From Candidatus Cloacimonadales bacterium (lineage in GTDB: Bacteria; Cloacimonadota; Cloacimonadia; Cloacimonadales; JAFGVF01), in contig CAXXOU010000004.1 of assembly GCA_963677495.2 (NCBI GenBank), positions 576,001-640,000 of the forward strand: DNA of 64,000 nt, in the 5' to 3' direction. A program made the translations under genes and the position numbers. A model generated the notes under the pieces. That model was not told where the DNA came from, did no database searches, and saw only the letters and a program-made list of their open reading frames with translations. Shown here in pieces: positions 11,434-56,607 of this stretch. Position 1 is the stretch's first letter. Each line of letters opens with the position of its first letter.

Positions 11434-11464
11434 AAAAAAGCCTACCGGCAATGTCGATAGGCTT
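11434..11464 (-). terminator. Terminator of tRNA-Leu
   Basis: Stem AAGCCTACCGGCA/TGTCGATAGGCTT with an A-run on the + strand, just downstream of the tRNA CCA end. Confidence 0.65.
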
Positions 11465-11470
11465 AAGCTT

Positions 11471-11560
11471 TGGTGCTGAAGAAGGGACTTGAACCCCCAC
11501 GTCCTAATTTCGGACACTAGAACCTGAATCTAGCGTGTCTACCAATTCCACCACTCCAGC
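11471..11560 (-). tRNA. tRNA-Leu (anticodon CAG)
   Basis: The reverse complement reads GCTGGAGTGGTGGAATTGGTAGACACGCTAGATTCAGGTTCTAGTG...GGGGGTTCAAGTCCCTTCTTCAGCACCA: D-loop, anticodon stem CTAGA/TCTAG with loop TTCAGGT, long variable arm, T-loop GTTCAAGT and encoded CCA. Confidence 0.97.
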
Positions 11561-11753
11561 ATGAGTGTATTACAGATATTTTTGAACCCTTACTATGTCA
11601 ATAGAAATCTTAACAGTAAAATAGCTACTAATCACTTTGATTATAGGTCAGAGAGTATTGATAGTGAACTAATTTCAATAATATATCAGATTTTCCTTGC
11701 AATATAAAAAATCATAGTGAAAATACGTATTACCAAATCTATAAATCTGTGAG

Positions 11754-13043
11754 GTGACTATGAGTGAAGCTTTCAATGCCTTTGAGATGGTTCAAAAGCA
11801 ATTTGATTCTATTGCTGATAAACTTGATTTGAACAGTGCAGCAAGAGATTTTCTGAGAAACCCTATGCGAGAATACCATTTCCTTATTCCTGTTAAGATG
11901 GATGATGGTTCAACCAAAGTGTTTAAAGGTTTTAGAATTCAGCACAATGATGCTTTAGGCCCAGCTAAAGGAGGAGTTCGATTTCACCCACTAGAAACAG
12001 TTGATTTAGTCAGAGCTCTAGCAATGTGGATGACTTGGAAAACCTCAGTTGTAGATCTGCCTTTAGGTGGGGGATATGGGGGTGTTATCTGCGATCCTCA
12101 CCATTTATCAATGAGAGAACAGGAGCTGATATGTCGAGGTTGGGTTAGACAGCTTGGTGATAATATAGGACCGTTGAGGGATATACCGGCACCTGATATT
12201 ATGACTTATAGTCAACATATGCTGTGGATTCTTGATGAGTATGAGATGATGCATGGGAAGAAACTTCCGGGTATGATTACAGGCAAACCTGTAGAGTTGG
12301 GTGGTTCATTAGGTAGGACAGAATCGACAGGATACGGACTGATGTTTACAGTACGGGAAGCATTAAGAGAATTAAAGATTCGACCTGATACTACAACAGC
12401 TGTGTTCCAGGGATTTGGTAATGTAACACAACATGCGATTAAGCTTTATAACCAATTAGGTGGTACTGTTCTAGGTGTATCCTCCTGGAACCCTAAACAG
12501 CATACTGCAACACTATATATGAAACCGGAAGGAATAAACCTGAAAGAACTTCAAGAGATAACAGATAGATTTGGAAGCATTGATTGTGATAAAGCTGAAG
12601 AGTTGGGCTATGAACTACTTCCCGGTGACAAATGGATTGAACAGGAATGTGATATACTTGTTCCTTCAGCATTAGAAAACCAGATTACTGTGGAGAATGT
12701 CGGACTCATCAATAAACAGGTTAGAATAATAGCTGAGGGAGCAAATGGACCAACAAGTCCTGCTGCAGACGATATTCTCATGGATAGAGGAATCTTCGTT
12801 ATCCCTGATGTTCTTTGTAATGCCGGTGGAGTTACATGTAGCTATTTCGAGCAGGTTCAGTCAAACATGAACTACTACTGGTCTAAGGATGAAGTTATCA
12901 GCAAGCTGGATGTTAAACTGACTAAAGCATACCATAAGGTTGCTGAACTAGCTCGAAGGAAAAAGCTTTATATGCGTGAAGCAGCCTATATGATCGCAGT
13001 TGACAGAGTAGTACGGGCAGCACAAGAAAGAGGGTGGATATAA
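11754..13043 (+). CDS. Glu/Leu/Phe/Val dehydrogenase family protein with catalytic Lys replaced by Tyr (possible pseudo-GDH)
   Basis: GPAKGGVRFHP, MTWK, PAPD, ITGKP..GGS.GR, EGANGP and NAGGV are present, but GGGYGG replaces GGGKGG. Confidence 0.9.
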   Translation: MTMSEAFNAFEMVQKQFDSIADKLDLNSAARDFLRNPMREYHFLIPVKMDDGSTKVFKGFRIQHNDALGPAKGGVRFHPLETVDLVRALAMWMTWKTSVVDLPLGGGYGGVICDPHHLSMREQELICRGWVRQLGDNIGPLRDIPAPDIMTYSQHMLWILDEYEMMHGKKLPGMITGKPVELGGSLGRTESTGYGLMFTVREALRELKIRPDTTTAVFQGFGNVTQHAIKLYNQLGGTVLGVSSWNPKQHTATLYMKPEGINLKELQEITDRFGSIDCDKAEELGYELLPGDKWIEQECDILVPSALENQITVENVGLINKQVRIIAEGANGPTSPAADDILMDRGIFVIPDVLCNAGGVTCSYFEQVQSNMNYYWSKDEVISKLDVKLTKAYHKVAELARRKKLYMREAAYMIAVDRVVRAAQERGWI

Positions 13044-14782
13044 TGAATGAGAAAATGAAATCAGGTCAAAGATTTGATAGATTAAGTGGATTCTTTTCAG
13101 ATACTTTCAGCTACATAGGTAGGGGAGAACCGGGAGGTAAAGCTTCGGGTTTAGCATTCATGCAGGATGTTATTAAGAAGAGATTTCCTGATAATGAGTT
13201 TGATGGAATTAAGATCAATATCCCGAGTATGACAGTTCTCCTTAGTGGTGTATTTGAAGATTTTATGGAGGATAACAATCTCTATGAAATAGCACTTTCT
13301 GATGCGTCTGATGTAGAGATTGCTCTTGAGTTTCAAAGAGCTTCATTAGGAGCAATATACACCGGTGATCTTAGAAGCATTATTGAAAGCATACACCAAC
13401 CTTTAGCTATTCGCTCTTCAAGTATCTTCGAGGATTCAATAGACGACCCCTTTGCCGGTGTCTATGAAACTAAAATGATACCTAATAATCAGATAGATAA
13501 AGATCAAAGGTTTAGAGTATTAATGGAAGCAATTAAGTTTGTATATGCTTCTCTCTTCTTTAAAAACTCTAAGGAGTACTTTCTCTCATTAAACAGAGAT
13601 ATTCGTGATGAGAAGATGGCAATCATAATTCAGGAAGTTGTTGGTAATAGGCATGGTGACCTTTTTTATCCTACAATCTCCGGTGTTGTTAAATCGTATA
13701 ATTTCTACCCAACAAACAATGCAACTCATGAAGAAGGGATAGCTACACTTGCTCTTGGTTTGGGGAAAACCGTTGTAGAAGGGGAGAAGGCTTGGAGTTA
13801 CTCACCTATGCACCCAACAGCACCACCCCCATTTAACAATAATCACGATATATTGAAATACACACAAACTGAGTTCTGGTCAATAAATATGAATCAGGTT
13901 TGCTGTTACGACTCTACTCAGGAGACTGAGTATTTAAGCTACCAATCAATTTACGATGCCGAAGAACATGATACACTTAAGCATATCTGCTCTACGTTCG
14001 ATAGTTTAAACGATAGAATAACTATAGGAACTGCGTATGCCGGTTCACGAATCATTGACTTTTCACCCCTGCTCAAGCTTGACATGATACCTTTGAATCC
14101 TCTTATCAAAGAGTTAATGAAGGTTTGCGAAGAGGAGAGTGGAAATAAGGTCGAGATGGAATTTGCGATGACAATTGATCCTGAAGGATATGATAAACCA
14201 AGGTTTGGATTTCTACAGCTAAGACCAATAAGTATTAGTGATAAGATTGTTGATATTAACGAGAAGTTGTACAATGCAGATAATATGCTCATTAAATCAG
14301 AACAAGTAATGGGAAATGCACAGATTGATAGTATAATTGATATTGTGTTTGTGAAACCTGATTGCTTTGACCCAAAAGCGTCTTTAGAAGTTGCTATGGA
14401 CCTAGCTGAGATAAATGCTGAGTTGATACAGAACAAGAAGCAGTACCTTCTAATGGGATTTGGCAGATGGGGAACATCTGATCCTTGGATGGGAGTACCG
14501 ATTAAATGGTCTCAAATATCAGGAGCAAAAGTCATTGTTGAAGCAATCTTACCTCAAATGAGATTTGATTTCAGTCAGGGATCACATTTCTTCCACAACA
14601 TGACAGCTCATAATGTTATATATTTCTCAGCAAATCTGGAGATGAGTAATGCTATAGACTGGGATTGGCTGAAATCTCATGAAGTTATTGAAGAAACAGA
14701 CTATATTCTTCATGTACGAACGAAGAAACCAATAGAAATATATGCAGATGGGCGTTCGGGTAAAGGAGTAATTCTTAAATGA
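13043..14782 (+). CDS. PEP/pyruvate-binding (PPDK_N/PEP synthase-like ATP-grasp) domain protein
   Basis: GGKASGL, AIRSSSIFEDS...FAGVY, MAIIIQEVVG, GLGKTVVEG, EMEFA and LQLRP motifs. The ATG at 13043 overlaps the upstream TAA (the ORF track uses GTG 13034). Confidence 0.85.
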   Translation: MNEKMKSGQRFDRLSGFFSDTFSYIGRGEPGGKASGLAFMQDVIKKRFPDNEFDGIKINIPSMTVLLSGVFEDFMEDNNLYEIALSDASDVEIALEFQRASLGAIYTGDLRSIIESIHQPLAIRSSSIFEDSIDDPFAGVYETKMIPNNQIDKDQRFRVLMEAIKFVYASLFFKNSKEYFLSLNRDIRDEKMAIIIQEVVGNRHGDLFYPTISGVVKSYNFYPTNNATHEEGIATLALGLGKTVVEGEKAWSYSPMHPTAPPPFNNNHDILKYTQTEFWSINMNQVCCYDSTQETEYLSYQSIYDAEEHDTLKHICSTFDSLNDRITIGTAYAGSRIIDFSPLLKLDMIPLNPLIKELMKVCEEESGNKVEMEFAMTIDPEGYDKPRFGFLQLRPISISDKIVDINEKLYNADNMLIKSEQVMGNAQIDSIIDIVFVKPDCFDPKASLEVAMDLAEINAELIQNKKQYLLMGFGRWGTSDPWMGVPIKWSQISGAKVIVEAILPQMRFDFSQGSHFFHNMTAHNVIYFSANLEMSNAIDWDWLKSHEVIEETDYILHVRTKKPIEIYADGRSGKGVILK

Positions 14783-17700
14783 TCCATAGTGGTAACAACC
14801 ATAATCAGTTGGAATCTCAGTTAACAGAAAGACGTAAAGAACTTGCTTGTATCCATAAGATGATAGAAATAACATCTGATTACTCTTCAGACTTTAGTGT
14901 TATATTTAATAGAATACTAGAGATTATCCCCGCAGGATGGCAGTATACTGATACCTGCTTTGCAGAGATTGAGTATATGAATAGTATATACTGTCTTCGC
15001 AAAGATCTTACACCAAAGTATTCCCAACAGAAGTCCTTGAGTATGAATGACAACTATTTCGGTGAGATTAAAGTCTACTACTCTGAAGTTCCCAAAGGCT
15101 TCGAAATAGCACCATTTCTTGATGAAGAGGTAGCATTACTTAGTACTTTGGCAGAGATGTTATCAACATATCTAGTTGTCAGAACTTTTACAGAGAACCT
15201 TGAAACACCTGGGACAAATCCAGAGCTGGAACATAAAGATTGGAAGATAGTACTCAAAATGCTCCAGGATACGGATTATAGATTGTATCTAAAAGTAGCA
15301 CGCAAGTTGATTAACCTTCTTTATCAAAGAGGTATCCCAGAAGTTAAGGAGATATACTACTCTACAGGAATAACAAGATCAGAATCTGACTCAGAGGATA
15401 TCCTCGATGCAAACAAACCTTTGAAAAAGCAAGATTATCTTGATATGGAGGTTGTTAGTAAGAAGGTGTTCGAAATCGCTGAGAATTGTTTACCGAATGA
15501 GGAAGTTCTTGAGTATATTCATAAATGGATTCAAGAGGATAAGTTAAGTTTCCTAATCACTGCATTAGAGGATAAGTATACGTCTCTTGCCGAGCTACAA
15601 GATGTGATTGCAAGATATCAGCATCTTAAGATAAGCAAGGAGAGCTTATCACCATATTCTCAGTTAAATCTGAAAGTGTTACTTATTCAACGACTCTTTA
15701 CATCGCAGTTAGAATTTATTAGAATAGCAAAAAATTACATCCAGATAGAAGATTTCTATGATGTACTTCAACATACTATTTCTCCAAAGAACTCTCATGG
15801 AAGATTAGGAGGTAAAAGTACCGGTTTATTCTTCGCGCATAATATCATAAAGAGCGAGACAGACCTTGAATTTCAGAAAGGTATAAAGACCCCCAAGAGT
15901 TGGTATATAACTTCTGACGCCATGCAGTCTTTTGTGCACTATAACAATCTAGAAGAGGTTATTGAACAGAAATATAAGGATATTGAGCAGATAAGGGCTG
16001 AATATCCCAATATTGTACAGATGTTCAAGAACTCCTATTTCCCACATGATATTGCTAAAGAGCTTTCCCAAGCTCTTGATTCATTCGGAACTTCACCAAT
16101 AATTGTCAGAAGCTCATCATTATTGGAAGATAGTTTTGGTACATCCTTTTCCGGAAAATATAAAAGTCTATTCTTAGCTAATCAGGGCAATAAAAAGGAA
16201 AGGTTAAGTGCTTTAATGGATGCCATTGCTGAAGTATATGCTTCTGTAATTGCTCCTGATCCTATCGAGTATCGAAAGGACCATGGACTTGTAGACTTCC
16301 ATGAAGAGATGGCTATCATGATTCAAGAGGTTGTTGGCACAAAAGTAGGAAACTATTTCCTTCCTGCTTTTGCAGGAGTAGCATTCTCCAATAATGAGTT
16401 CAGATGGTCACCTAGAATCAAAAGGAACGATGGTTTAGTAAGATTAGTTCCGGGCTTAGGGACTAGGGCAGTAGATAGAGTCAGTGATGATTATCCTGTT
16501 TTAGCTTCACCGGGACAGCCTGGTATTAGAGTTAACGCTTCACCGGATGAGATACTAAAATATTCACCTAAGTTCCTAGATCTGATAAATCTCGAAACTA
16601 ATACTTTTGAAACTCTCCCAATTCAAAAAGCACTGAAACTGTTTGAAGATGATTTCCCAATGCTAAACAGAATCTTTAGCGTTAATGAGAATGGTTTTAT
16701 TCACCAAAAAGCAGTATTCAATATTGACTTTGAGAAAGATGACTTAATAGTTACCTTCAGGTCTTTGATGACTGATACAAATTTTATGAAACGGATAAAG
16801 AGAATCTTAGATGTTCTTGAAGACAAAATGTCAACTCCAGTGGATATTGAGTTTGCAGTAATCAACAATGATATCTATCTTCTTCAATGCAGACCTCAAT
16901 GTTTCTCTAAAGAGGTTGAGCCTGCTCCAATTCCTCAGGATATTCCGGAAAAAGAGATTCTGTTTACAGCTCGAAAACATATCTCCAATGGCAGAATCCC
17001 GGAAGTGACACATCTTGTTTATGTAGACCCTACAGAATATACACAGTTAGAGACCTTAGAACAGTTAAAATCTGTTGGTAGGTGTGTCGGAGAGTTGAAT
17101 TCGGTTCTACCAAAGAAGAAATTTATACTGATCGGGCCCGGGAGATGGGGAAGTAAAGGTGATATTAAACTGGGTGTTGATGTCTCCTATTCTGAAATAA
17201 GCAATACATCTGCCTTAATTGAGGTGGCTAAAGAACAAGCAAGCTTTGCTCCTGATCTTTCATTTGGTACTCACTTCTTTCAAGATCTTGTAGAATCAAC
17301 AATTAGGTACATCCCCTTATATCCAGATGAGAAGGATAATGTCTTTAATACTGAGTTCTTCAAGAAGAGTGAGAGTATACTTCCAACCTTGTTACCGAAA
17401 TACTCTGAGCTAGGGAACTGTATAAAAGTTATAGATATTCCGAAAGAAACTGATGGTAATGTACTTAAAATCTTTATGAATGCTGATTTGGAACAGGCAA
17501 TAGCATATTTTGGCGTAGCAGATAACCGAAAAAGAAGTTCAAGTAAGGCTTATTATGAAGATGAAAATACTGATAACTTCTGGTTATGGAGATTACAAAT
17601 GGCAGAATTTCTTGCCTCACAATTAGATGCTAAAAGATATGGTGTGGTTAATTTATACATTTTTGGTAGCGTTAAAAACGCTACTGCCGGACCGGGTAGT

Positions 17701-17940
17701 GATATAGATCTTTTGGTTCACTTCAGAGGAAACGAGATTAAAAAGCAACAGTTACTAGCATGGTTTGATGGATGGAGTAGATGTCTTGGTAGAATGAATT
17801 ACCTAAGAACCGGTTATAAAACTGATGGTCTTCTTGATGTACACATCATAACGGATCAAGATATCTCTGACAAAGACAGCTTTGCAATCAAAATTGGGGC
17901 TGTAACTGATGCAGCAAAACTACTTAAGGTGCGCAAATGA
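14779..17940 (+). CDS. GAF-like + PPDK_N-type ATP-grasp + C-terminal nucleotidyltransferase multidomain protein
   Basis: N-terminal ERRKELAC..PAGWQY..FLDEE; LGGKSTGL, IVRSSSLLEDS..FSGKY, IQEVVG, GLGTRAV, DIEFA, LQCRP; C-terminal YIFGSVKNATAGPGSDIDLLV...LDVH (Pol-beta NTase GS..DxD..D). Confidence 0.85.
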   Translation: MIHSGNNHNQLESQLTERRKELACIHKMIEITSDYSSDFSVIFNRILEIIPAGWQYTDTCFAEIEYMNSIYCLRKDLTPKYSQQKSLSMNDNYFGEIKVYYSEVPKGFEIAPFLDEEVALLSTLAEMLSTYLVVRTFTENLETPGTNPELEHKDWKIVLKMLQDTDYRLYLKVARKLINLLYQRGIPEVKEIYYSTGITRSESDSEDILDANKPLKKQDYLDMEVVSKKVFEIAENCLPNEEVLEYIHKWIQEDKLSFLITALEDKYTSLAELQDVIARYQHLKISKESLSPYSQLNLKVLLIQRLFTSQLEFIRIAKNYIQIEDFYDVLQHTISPKNSHGRLGGKSTGLFFAHNIIKSETDLEFQKGIKTPKSWYITSDAMQSFVHYNNLEEVIEQKYKDIEQIRAEYPNIVQMFKNSYFPHDIAKELSQALDSFGTSPIIVRSSSLLEDSFGTSFSGKYKSLFLANQGNKKERLSALMDAIAEVYASVIAPDPIEYRKDHGLVDFHEEMAIMIQEVVGTKVGNYFLPAFAGVAFSNNEFRWSPRIKRNDGLVRLVPGLGTRAVDRVSDDYPVLASPGQPGIRVNASPDEILKYSPKFLDLINLETNTFETLPIQKALKLFEDDFPMLNRIFSVNENGFIHQKAVFNIDFEKDDLIVTFRSLMTDTNFMKRIKRILDVLEDKMSTPVDIEFAVINNDIYLLQCRPQCFSKEVEPAPIPQDIPEKEILFTARKHISNGRIPEVTHLVYVDPTEYTQLETLEQLKSVGRCVGELNSVLPKKKFILIGPGRWGSKGDIKLGVDVSYSEISNTSALIEVAKEQASFAPDLSFGTHFFQDLVESTIRYIPLYPDEKDNVFNTEFFKKSESILPTLLPKYSELGNCIKVIDIPKETDGNVLKIFMNADLEQAIAYFGVADNRKRSSSKAYYEDENTDNFWLWRLQMAEFLASQLDAKRYGVVNLYIFGSVKNATAGPGSDIDLLVHFRGNEIKKQQLLAWFDGWSRCLGRMNYLRTGYKTDGLLDVHIITDQDISDKDSFAIKIGAVTDAAKLLKVRK

Positions 17941-18809
17941 TAAAAGCTTTGTTTACTTCTGATTTACATGGAAACGAGTTTAAGTACGAGTTCTTGTTTG
18001 AAAACATAGTAAAGCACGTACCGGAAGCTGTGTTTATCGGTGGGGATATTCTGATACCATTTAGCAAGATTAAAGACCAGATATCAGGTAAATCTGATAG
18101 TTTTCTGAACGATTACCTGAGAGTTGAGTTGCTTAAGTTAAAAGAACGATTAAGGAATAAATATCCTGAAATATATGTGATAATGGGTAATGATGATAAT
18201 AAATTTTCTGAAGAGATACTTGATAGCAAGATGTTCGAAGGACTATTGCATTATTGTCATTTCAAGAAGCTTAAGTTTAAAAATTGGGAAGTAGTAGGAT
18301 ATAACTTTGTACCACCAACTCCGTTCATGAATAAGGATTGGGAGAAATTCGATGTATCAAGATTTGTGGATGTTGGATGTTTAGCTCCTTTTGATGGTTA
18401 TCATGACCCTTCAATACCGGAGTATGACCTTAAGTTCTCAACAATCAAAGAAGACTTTGAAACTCTGTTTGATGAAGTAGATACATCCAAATTAATTCTA
18501 TTAGCTCATACTCCACCATATAAATCTAAACTTGATAGGGCTGACCTGGATGGTGTGATGGTTGATCATGTTCCACTTGATGTTTACATAGGATCTATAG
18601 CTCTTCAACGTTTACTTGAAAAACAGAAGTTCTACTTAACGCTTCATGGTCACGTTCACGAATCGACGAGATTAACAGGTGATTATCAGGACACGATTGG
18701 TGAGAACCTATCTATGAATGGTGCATCAGAGCACAATGAAGCAAGTATCATTCTTTTCGATTTGGAGAATCCTACTGAATCTACGAGATTAACTAAGCTT
18801 AAGCCTTAA
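17937..18809 (+). CDS. Calcineurin-like metallophosphoesterase (Icc-related)
   Basis: SDLHG, GGD, MGNDD, AHTPP and HGHVHE motifs. ATGA overlap with the upstream gene. Confidence 0.88.
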   Translation: MIKALFTSDLHGNEFKYEFLFENIVKHVPEAVFIGGDILIPFSKIKDQISGKSDSFLNDYLRVELLKLKERLRNKYPEIYVIMGNDDNKFSEEILDSKMFEGLLHYCHFKKLKFKNWEVVGYNFVPPTPFMNKDWEKFDVSRFVDVGCLAPFDGYHDPSIPEYDLKFSTIKEDFETLFDEVDTSKLILLAHTPPYKSKLDRADLDGVMVDHVPLDVYIGSIALQRLLEKQKFYLTLHGHVHESTRLTGDYQDTIGENLSMNGASEHNEASIILFDLENPTESTRLTKLKP

Positions 18810-55266: not shown

Positions 55267-56607
55267 ATGACTATTAATGATTTTATGGCACAAGTCGAAG
55301 TGAAGAATCCGGCTCAGCCCGAATTCATTCAGGCAGTAAGAGAAGTTGTGGAGTCAGTTTGGGAGTATTACCATGCACACCCACGCTACGTAAAAGCTAA
55401 AGTATTAGACAGAATCGTAGAGCCTGAAAGAGTCATTATGTTCCGCGTTCCTTGGATGGATGACAAAGGTGAAGTTCAAGTGAACCGTGGATACCGTGTT
55501 GAATTCAACAGTGCTATTGGACCTTACAAAGGTGGATTACGTTTCCATCCTTCTGTAACTTTATCAATCCTTAAGTTCCTCGGTTTCGAGCAGATCTTCA
55601 AAAACAGTCTTACAACACTCCCAATGGGTGGCGGTAAGGGTGGATCTGACTTTGACGCTAAAGGCAAATCAGATGCTGAAATCATGCGTTTCTGCCAATC
55701 ATTCATGATGGAACTTTTCCGTCATATCGGACCTAACACAGACGTTCCTGCTGGTGACATCGGTGTTGGTGGACGTGAGATTGGTTACATGTTCGGTATG
55801 TATAAGAAACTTCGTAATGAGTTCACTGGTGTTCTTACAGGTAAAGGCCTTAACTGGGGTGGTTCACTTATCAGACCTGAAGCTACAGGTTTTGGTGCTA
55901 CTTACTTTGCTAAAGAGATGCTTAAAACAAAAGATATGACTTTTGAAGGCAAGAAAGTTGCTCTTTCAGGTTTCGGTAACGTTGCTTGGGGCGCTGCTCA
56001 GAAAGTTACTATGCTTGGTGGAACAGTTATCACTATTTCAGGTCCTGACGGATACGTTCTCGATGAAGAAGGTATTAACACACCTGAAAAATTCGATTAC
56101 CTTCTTGAACTTCGTGCATCAAACAACGACCGCGTAAGCGATTACGTTGAAGCATTCCCTAATGCTAAATTCTTCCCTGGCAAACGCCCTTGGGAAGTTA
56201 AAGTTGATGTTGCTATGCCATGTGCTACTCAGAACGAACTTAATGAAGATGATGCTAAAGCACTCGTTGCAAATGGTGTTATTGCTATCTCTGAAGGTGC
56301 TAACATGCCTTGTACTCCTGGTGCAGTTCATGTATTCCTTGAGAACAAAATTCTCTTTGCTCCTGGTAAAGCTGCTAACGCCGGTGGTGTTGCAACTTCA
56401 GGTCTTGAGATGTCACAGAACAGCTTACGTTTCAACTGGACTGCTGAAGAAGTTGATGAAAAACTTCACAGAATCATGTGCGACATTCACGATGCATGTG
56501 TTAAGTTCGGTAAAGACGAAGATGGTTTCGTTGATTACGTTAAAGGTGCAAACATTGCAGGTTTCGTAAAAGTTGCTGATGCTATGCTTGACCAGGGTGT
56601 TGTATAA
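55267..56607 (+). CDS. gdhA: NAD(P)-specific glutamate dehydrogenase
   Basis: GPYKGGLRFHP, FEQIFKN, PMGGGKGGSDF (catalytic Lys intact), PAGDIGVG, RPEATG, EGANMP. Strongly biased codon usage and GGAGG RBS before ATG 55267. Confidence 0.97.
   Translation: MTINDFMAQVEVKNPAQPEFIQAVREVVESVWEYYHAHPRYVKAKVLDRIVEPERVIMFRVPWMDDKGEVQVNRGYRVEFNSAIGPYKGGLRFHPSVTLSILKFLGFEQIFKNSLTTLPMGGGKGGSDFDAKGKSDAEIMRFCQSFMMELFRHIGPNTDVPAGDIGVGGREIGYMFGMYKKLRNEFTGVLTGKGLNWGGSLIRPEATGFGATYFAKEMLKTKDMTFEGKKVALSGFGNVAWGAAQKVTMLGGTVITISGPDGYVLDEEGINTPEKFDYLLELRASNNDRVSDYVEAFPNAKFFPGKRPWEVKVDVAMPCATQNELNEDDAKALVANGVIAISEGANMPCTPGAVHVFLENKILFAPGKAANAGGVATSGLEMSQNSLRFNWTAEEVDEKLHRIMCDIHDACVKFGKDEDGFVDYVKGANIAGFVKVADAMLDQGVV

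Follow-up and report, generated by a model that had tools for sequence, protein, structure and literature searches.

The locus analyzed here raises the question of why a genome would keep a glutamate dehydrogenase (GDH) homologue that lacks the catalytic lysine. Replacement of the catalytic lysine of GDH abolishes activity. In a 64,000-nucleotide stretch of a Candidatus Cloacimonadales genome (the window), the GDH-like gene P0001 has a tyrosine codon at this position and lies upstream of genes for dikinase-like proteins (Table 1). On balance we favor the reading, for which we claim somewhat better than an even chance, that P0001 is a catalytically dead GDH kept as a ligand-binding partner of these proteins.

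Table 1. Features of the window, with positions counted from its first letter.
Feature	Position	Strand	Basis
P0001, GDH-like gene, 427 aa, module-type GdhB-like subfamily, predicted pseudoenzyme	11760..13043	+	Pfam PF02812 + PF00208, fold
TAT codon, Tyr106 of P0001, replacing the catalytic Lys (Thermococcus profundus Lys105)	12075..12077	+	sequence, alignment
GAGGTG, putative ribosome-binding-like site 5' of ATG 11760	11750..11755	+	sequence
PPa, stand-alone dikinase-like protein: PPDK_N ATP-binding domain and C-terminal SQGSHFF His motif	13043..14782	+	
PPb: N-terminal alpha/beta domain, helical domain, PPDK_N (342-724), SFGTHFF (H832), C-terminal nucleotidyltransferase (GS...DID)	14779..17940	+	
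Calcineurin-like metallophosphoesterase, travels with the nucleotidyltransferase domain	17937..18809	+	
P0002, second GDH, PRK14030 subfamily, GGGKGG intact, SGFGNVAWG	55267..56607	+	

The GDH-like gene and its tyrosine codon

The codons CCT TTA GGT GGG GGA TAT GGG GGT GTT at 12060-12086 are read within the motif LPLGGGYGGV, and the TAT codon given in the preliminary description was confirmed from both sequence and translation. Alignment with the Pyrococcus and Thermococcus GDHs (1gtm, 1euz) places this tyrosine opposite the lysine of GGGKGG; it is residue 106 from ATG 11760, and the earlier number 108 denotes the same tyrosine counted from GTG 11754. Contigs from four public runs (one sample, possibly this DNA's own source) contained no other letter in the TAT codon. 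Independently, four other proteins have the same tyrosine (codon TAC in L001, TAT in L002), which bears out the earlier judgment that a sequencing error is unlikely and rules it out as the source of the tyrosine.

P0001 otherwise belongs to the Glu/Leu/Phe/Val dehydrogenase fold family: it is full length and matches PF02812 and PF00208 at 167 and 227 bits, above the cut-offs, and the predicted fold (pLDDT 95.4) aligned to hexameric GDH folds with a TM-score of 0.93. It lacks the lysine of the GG(G/S/A)KGG motif of active GDHs and retains the catalytic aspartate of the P(A/S)(P/G)D motif (D146, in PAPD), all glutamate-binding residues (K70 in KGGVR, K94 in MTWK, R186 and S361; K69, K93, R187 and S351 in T. 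profundus (Tp) GDH) and the GxGNV motif and cleft-closing asparagines (G218, G220, N221, N329 and N354, the last two being Tp N319 and N344). The retention of KGGVR, MTWK, the PAPD aspartate and a full-length frame, as previously described, thus held. The dinucleotide motif was described as GFGNVT; GFGNV is present, but among 120 proteins the T occurs in this strain only, the others having S or A, and we rejected it as a meaningful change.

P0001 is about 42-45% identical to the hexameric GDHs of Pyrococcus, Thermococcus, Thermotoga and Bacillus (1gtm, 1euz, 8xcp, 7mfm; TM-score 0.85-0.93) and keeps the equivalents of Tp Lys69, Lys93, Asp145, Arg187 and Ser351. It differs from them in having tyrosine for Tp Lys105, in having residues and inserts of its NAD domain that are specific to the subfamily, and in its coupling to dikinase-like genes; against GdhA_Arch it scored 451 versus 750 bits, below the NCBIfam cut-off. 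In reports on Tp GDH, the pocket comprises Lys69, Lys93, Lys105, Arg187 and Ser351, with a water beside Lys105 that is required for the first steps (PMC11096400), and Lys69, Lys93, Asp145, Arg187 and Ser351 are given as pocket residues (PMC11096400, PMC12001156); the equivalent Lys102 is described as priming the water that attacks the imine (PMC7326016). The role these sources give the lysine is thus to prime the attacking water (PMC7326016, PMC11096400), where the preliminary description used the terms "Schiff-base" and "essential"; our literature search returned no mutagenesis paper on the GDH catalytic lysine. From its sequence, we infer that P0001 is without catalysis.

Distribution, selection and redundancy in the tyrosine genus

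Among the 120 best protein matches, 116 had lysine and four had tyrosine at this site, and a motif-centered search added a fifth tyrosine protein. The five proteins (codons TAT or TAC) are 77-92% identical to each other and formed a monophyletic group in a FastTree phylogeny (support 0.999, stem 0.15), nested in lysine-bearing Cloacimonadota relatives. The gene is present in all four available species of the genus; tyrosine was read directly in three (TAT, TAC and TAT), and the gene fragment of the fourth ends before the site and is 100% identical over 262 aa to the tyrosine protein P0045. The module GDH type (named for the coupled genes described below) occurs in 53 of 232 Cloacimonadota genomes (58 matches minus 5 of a more distant type), and outside the genus, in 49 genomes of the phylum, all 48 orthologues readable at the site have lysine. 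Lysine orthologues of P0001 are 73-74% identical to the tyrosine proteins (P0005, for example, at 74%). With a P0001-type query, this GDH type was not detected in eight other genomes of the same family, which indicates that the module is dispensable.

This alignment and tabulation of orthologues rules out a strain-specific lesion, which the preliminary description had considered, since the monophyletic five-protein clade spans the genus; tyrosine is fixed genus-wide under purifying selection. The loss of lysine holds at the level of this clade and not family-wide, as most orthologues have lysine: the residue is present in 325 of 339 aligned relatives (another residue in 10, a gap in 4), which rules out a family-wide pseudoenzyme.

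Synonymous sites are at or near saturation between the tyrosine species (pS 0.68-0.82; dN 0.10-0.22), and because saturation prevents an estimate of dS for most pairs, no dN/dS ratio is claimed. Despite this divergence the frames are full (427 aa) and free of indels. Among the five tyrosine proteins 115 of 427 positions vary, comprising 4 of 157 family-conserved positions versus 111 of the 270 others. All 19 other chosen pocket and cofactor positions are unchanged (17 being readable in the partial P0122), which for random sites has a chance of 0.002, though folding alone would conserve some of the glycines and buried residues. The earlier suggestion of binding without turnover fits this unchanged set. 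Purifying selection is partially relaxed: by using a fixed 38-taxon tree in which two of the four tyrosine taxa are partial, the GDH-to-partner rate was 2.3 times higher inside the tyrosine clade (1.9-3.2 in 40 bootstraps) and 1.7 times higher on its stem. The rise spans both GDH domains and continues within the clade. In the three full-length tyrosine pairs, GDH identity was 83-86% at 81-87% partner identity, below the 89-94% of all 13 lysine pairs at 80-90% partner identity. Constraint on the GDH has eased, which fits the loss of one job with retention of another and also early decay.

The source genome has two further GDHs, both with lysine and both 31% identical to P0001, at distances of about 42 kb and 570 kb. 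The nearer is P0002, for which the lysine stated earlier was confirmed (K124, codon at 55636). P0002 has Phe at the P2 fingerprint position, a residue typical of NAD-specific GDHs (PMC12364357); it is likely a working enzyme, of NAD type judging from this Phe, that makes catalysis by the module GDH redundant. Among 232 Cloacimonadota genomes, a PRK14030-like motif was found in 141 of the 179 that lack the module GDH and in 6 of the 49 that carry it outside the tyrosine genus, a near-exclusion which suggests that the lysine form is itself a working catabolic GDH. Within the genus, the motif is present in both near-complete genomes and was not seen in the two incomplete ones (83% and 72%). The six lysine-module genomes with a redundant GDH still keep their lysine; redundancy thus permitted the loss of lysine and does not force it. 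Separately, in the region G000:C4:1155090-1162117 the third GDH, of GSGNV type, is found directly upstream of three ORFs that by eye we take to resemble NuoE/F/G-type redox subunits; what is presumably an IS21-type istAB pair lies at 1166102-1168338.

Redundancy is also the starting point of a slow-decay account, in which P0001 lost catalysis and persists, with no signaling role, only because damage to one gene of a coupled operon would be costly, through misfolding or through polar effects. The 2.3-fold faster evolution, the redundant GDHs, the loss of the whole GDH type in eight family relatives and the more eroded copies of other lineages all favor it. We nevertheless consider it unlikely, though worth keeping in view, given full frames without indels across saturated synonymous divergence, a spared pocket and cofactor set, for which folding would account in part, and a lysine lost repeatedly without loss of the gene, beside intact partners.

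A second GDH could also matter if P0001 co-assembled with it as an allosteric inactive subunit. The precedent is Thermus thermophilus GdhA, the inactive regulatory subunit of a GdhA/GdhB hetero-hexamer (3aoe; PMC9570180, 10.1101/2025.10.31.685773), and P0001 retains the fold and a conserved surface. Like GdhA, P0001 would in our best reading be kept for regulation and not for catalysis. Unlike GdhA, it has no close active paralogue beside it: the related active GdhB-type GDH that such a subunit would accompany was not found in the genome, the two active GDHs being only 31% identical, of another subfamily and remote. The likely partner is an ATP-grasp/His protein, the coupled neighbors being dikinase-like at all 14 Lys-less loci of this type, and P0001 is no closer to Thermus GdhA, at 215 bits, than to the active enzymes, at 395 bits. 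We consider a GdhA-like role quite improbable.

The dikinase-like module and repeated lysine loss

P0001 is nested in a module-type GDH clade and is coupled to partner genes: the first ATG of PPa overlaps the gdh stop codon (TAATG), PPb overlaps the PPa stop by 4 bases and the phosphoesterase overlaps the PPb stop by 4 bases. The arrangement recurs: of the first 80 loci, many ending early, 61 have PPDK_N-type ORFs and 28 the phosphoesterase. Among solved structures, PPb comes closest in fold to the ATP-binding domains of rifampin phosphotransferase, HpeI and phosphoenolpyruvate (PEP) synthase (Foldseek E-values 4e-13 to 5e-9). The partners share with these enzymes the PPDK_N ATP-binding fold; they differ in that PPb additionally has a nucleotidyltransferase and a domain at its N-terminus and in that Pfam found no PEP- or rifampin-binding domain. 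PPa has no sensor domain of its own.

In the tyrosine genus the ATP-grasp, His and nucleotidyltransferase motifs of the partners are all intact, the partners diverge at roughly the rate of PurL and DnaB, and conservation of the nucleotidyltransferase domain matches that of the remainder of PPb, which rules out decay of the whole module. A module that solely switched GDH catalysis should have decayed in this genus, and its intactness would point to more than that role. The coupled module, which was absent from the preliminary description, would explain the retention of the P0001 gene. Our literature search, which covered listings and abstract openings, largely from outside the subscription journals, returned no paper on the module or its Lys-less GDHs.

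Other observations were made on these genes. The helical PPb residues 141-340 (15199-15798) are conserved about like the ATP-binding core in tyrosine-genus pairs (82-90%) and less than the core in all nine lysine pairs, and are a candidate interface. A third dikinase-like paralogue of 987 aa (G000:C4:1352992-1355953) has a long N-terminal extension, is 38% identical to PPa and has no adjoining GDH. A tRNA-Leu(CAG) gene with a terminator-like hairpin lies on the minus strand at 11438-11560, divergent from gdh, and a promoter scan gave 28 hits where 27.3 were expected, no better than chance.

Lysine has been lost repeatedly within this subfamily. Rows shorter than 330 aa or unreadable at the site were dropped, which left 194 distinct locus-derived module-type GDHs and 33 sister-clade GDHs. 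Fourteen of the 194 module GDHs are without lysine (4 Tyr, 4 Gln, 2 Thr, 2 Phe, 2 Met), a fraction that overstates the rate, since three families had been chosen for a known loss and related copies do not count as independent; of the first 80 loci, 78 were readable and 6 of these had lost the lysine, two of the six being the tyrosine clade. Two further Lys-less proteins have Asn (P0205) and Met (P0285). The tree, in which several supporting nodes are weak, implies at least eight separate losses, including a second change to Tyr (L271). D146E occurs in eight more of the 194 and K70 is lost in two, and K94 is retained in all 14 Lys-less copies. In controls drawn from overlapping genome sets, lysine was lost in only 1 of 137, being present in 33/33 sister-clade GDHs (30 without a PPDK_N neighbor in the available flank), 94/94 P0002-like GDHs and 9/10 other GdhB-like GDHs.

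All 14 Lys-less loci have a PPDK_N gene within 5 kb, and a stand-alone PPa is directly downstream in 12 of the 13 with enough flank, versus 94 of 160 lysine copies. The nucleotidyltransferase domain is missing, with no phosphoesterase in the available stretch, at 11 of the 16 loci whose active site is altered, and the domain is missing at 6 of the 87 where it is intact (one a short-locus artefact, with two more unreadable), counts for which we claim no statistical significance because kin are not independent. The tyrosine genus is the exception and keeps both.

These losses bear on whether Tyr106, together with the other changes specific to the clade (T83L, V147I, N150Y and A189S, near the motif in sequence), could support low GDH activity or a different redox reaction, for example the reduction of keto acids. 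In its favor are a tyrosine fixed in 5/5 proteins and acquired a second time in L271, the retention of D146 and of every cofactor and substrate residue, and the position of the accompanying changes close to the motif. However, independent losses in the same module replaced the lysine by six different residues (Y, Q, T, M, F and N), including Met, Phe and Gln, which is a pattern of loss, and the rate rise covers both domains and persists inside the clade. Altered chemistry, which the preliminary description had raised beside binding, thus becomes the less likely of its two suggestions, and we put it at a small chance.

Other Lys-less lineages have also changed pocket residues (A144, N221, S361), so ligand binding may not be what those lineages keep. 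That they nevertheless retain the gene and its partners would suit a pure scaffold or substrate, needed for assembly or for modification by PPa/PPb, in which ligand occupancy carries no information. The fully preserved pocket of the tyrosine genus stands against this for P0001, and we regard it as very improbable there.

Active-site changes were also seen elsewhere. L135, L136, L381 and L384, from other Cloacimonadota, have tandem GdhB-type GDH gene pairs (both copies seen in L135, L136 and L384), and the second copy of L384 has Met at the catalytic lysine and Gly at the aspartate, a Thermus-like active-plus-dead pair. Bacteroidota module GDHs in two separate clades (L009, L010, L011, L058, L226, L233, L240 and L244) keep the lysine and have Glu for the catalytic aspartate. 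L106 and L107, from genomes with both the module GDH and an NAD-type GDH, have PATD for PAPD, possibly early relaxation. In the Anaerolineales family of G233 (L247-L325), a single clade whose members are not independent, five of six Lys-less module GDHs are in genomes with a sister-clade lysine GDH. Pseudo-GDHs extend beyond the module: 11 of 148 readable GDH-like cluster representatives have no lysine, and several active-site losses occur in the distant representatives P0259, P0269, P0277, P0281, P0310, P0313, P0331, P0337, P0362, P0377 and P0384.

Proposed role of P0001 and its module

If P0001 is a dead, ligand-binding GDH, its lysine-bearing ancestor probably worked as an NAD-type GDH and also did a second job in a four-gene module. 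With another GDH covering catalysis, lysine would have been lost once in the ancestor of the tyrosine genus, leaving only the second job. By prediction P0001 still folds, and its conserved residues suggest that it binds glutamate or 2-oxoglutarate with NAD(H) and closes its cleft. Its ligand state would then probably be passed to the dikinase-like ATP/phospho-His proteins coupled to it, and most directly to PPa, which has no sensor domain of its own; the output of PPa and PPb, at a guess, would be to mark a target in nitrogen metabolism with a phosphoryl or nucleotidyl group.

PPa was selected for complex prediction because it is directly downstream at 12 of the 13 Lys-less loci. With GDH and PPa residues 12-576 in paired 72-row alignments, the prediction scored 0.52 (best of three controls, 0.00), with contacts agreeing at ≥93% and a partner pLDDT of ≥82. 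In calibration, passes with scores ≤0.60 made up 18 of 157 solved complexes and both of the 2 passing mismatches among 215; this calibration is only roughly valid with a custom alignment. A pass at 0.52 is more often wrong than right unless binding is likely beforehand. The model lends weak support to GDH-PPa binding.

The best works-like analogy for P0001 is ADLP of T. thermophilus, an alanine dehydrogenase-like NAD+ sensor of a CoA transferase (10.1101/2025.10.31.685773). ADLP has varied residues in place of the catalytic lysine, keeps cofactor binding and controls a neighboring unrelated enzyme (10.1101/2025.10.31.685773); ADLP and GdhA are both dead dehydrogenase homologues serving as ligand sensors (10.1101/2025.10.31.685773, PMC9570180). 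ADLP belongs to a different enzyme family, has a different partner and is a whole dead clade, whereas the losses among module GDHs are recent, repeated and nested among lysine-bearing orthologues.

More tentatively, and with rather less than an even chance, the module may be an undescribed glutamate/2-oxoglutarate/NAD(H) sensing system in which a GDH hexamer is the receptor, the dikinase-like proteins are phospho-His transmitters and the nucleotidyltransferase and phosphoesterase switch GDH catalysis. If so, the nucleotidyltransferase/phosphoesterase pair would often be dropped once the catalytic job of the GDH is gone, and the tyrosine genus would be a natural separation-of-function mutant with the receptor role only. 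The obvious guess is that the module only regulates GDH activity; loss of lysine beside an intact pocket and intact partners argues against that as the whole story. Tyrosine and lysine orthologues, at 73-74% identity, are matched natural pairs for probing the input and output of the module. Lys-less genes are annotated as working GDHs, by which metabolic reconstructions are misled. GDH stands where carbon and nitrogen metabolism meet, and a widespread, unstudied module travels with one of its subfamilies.
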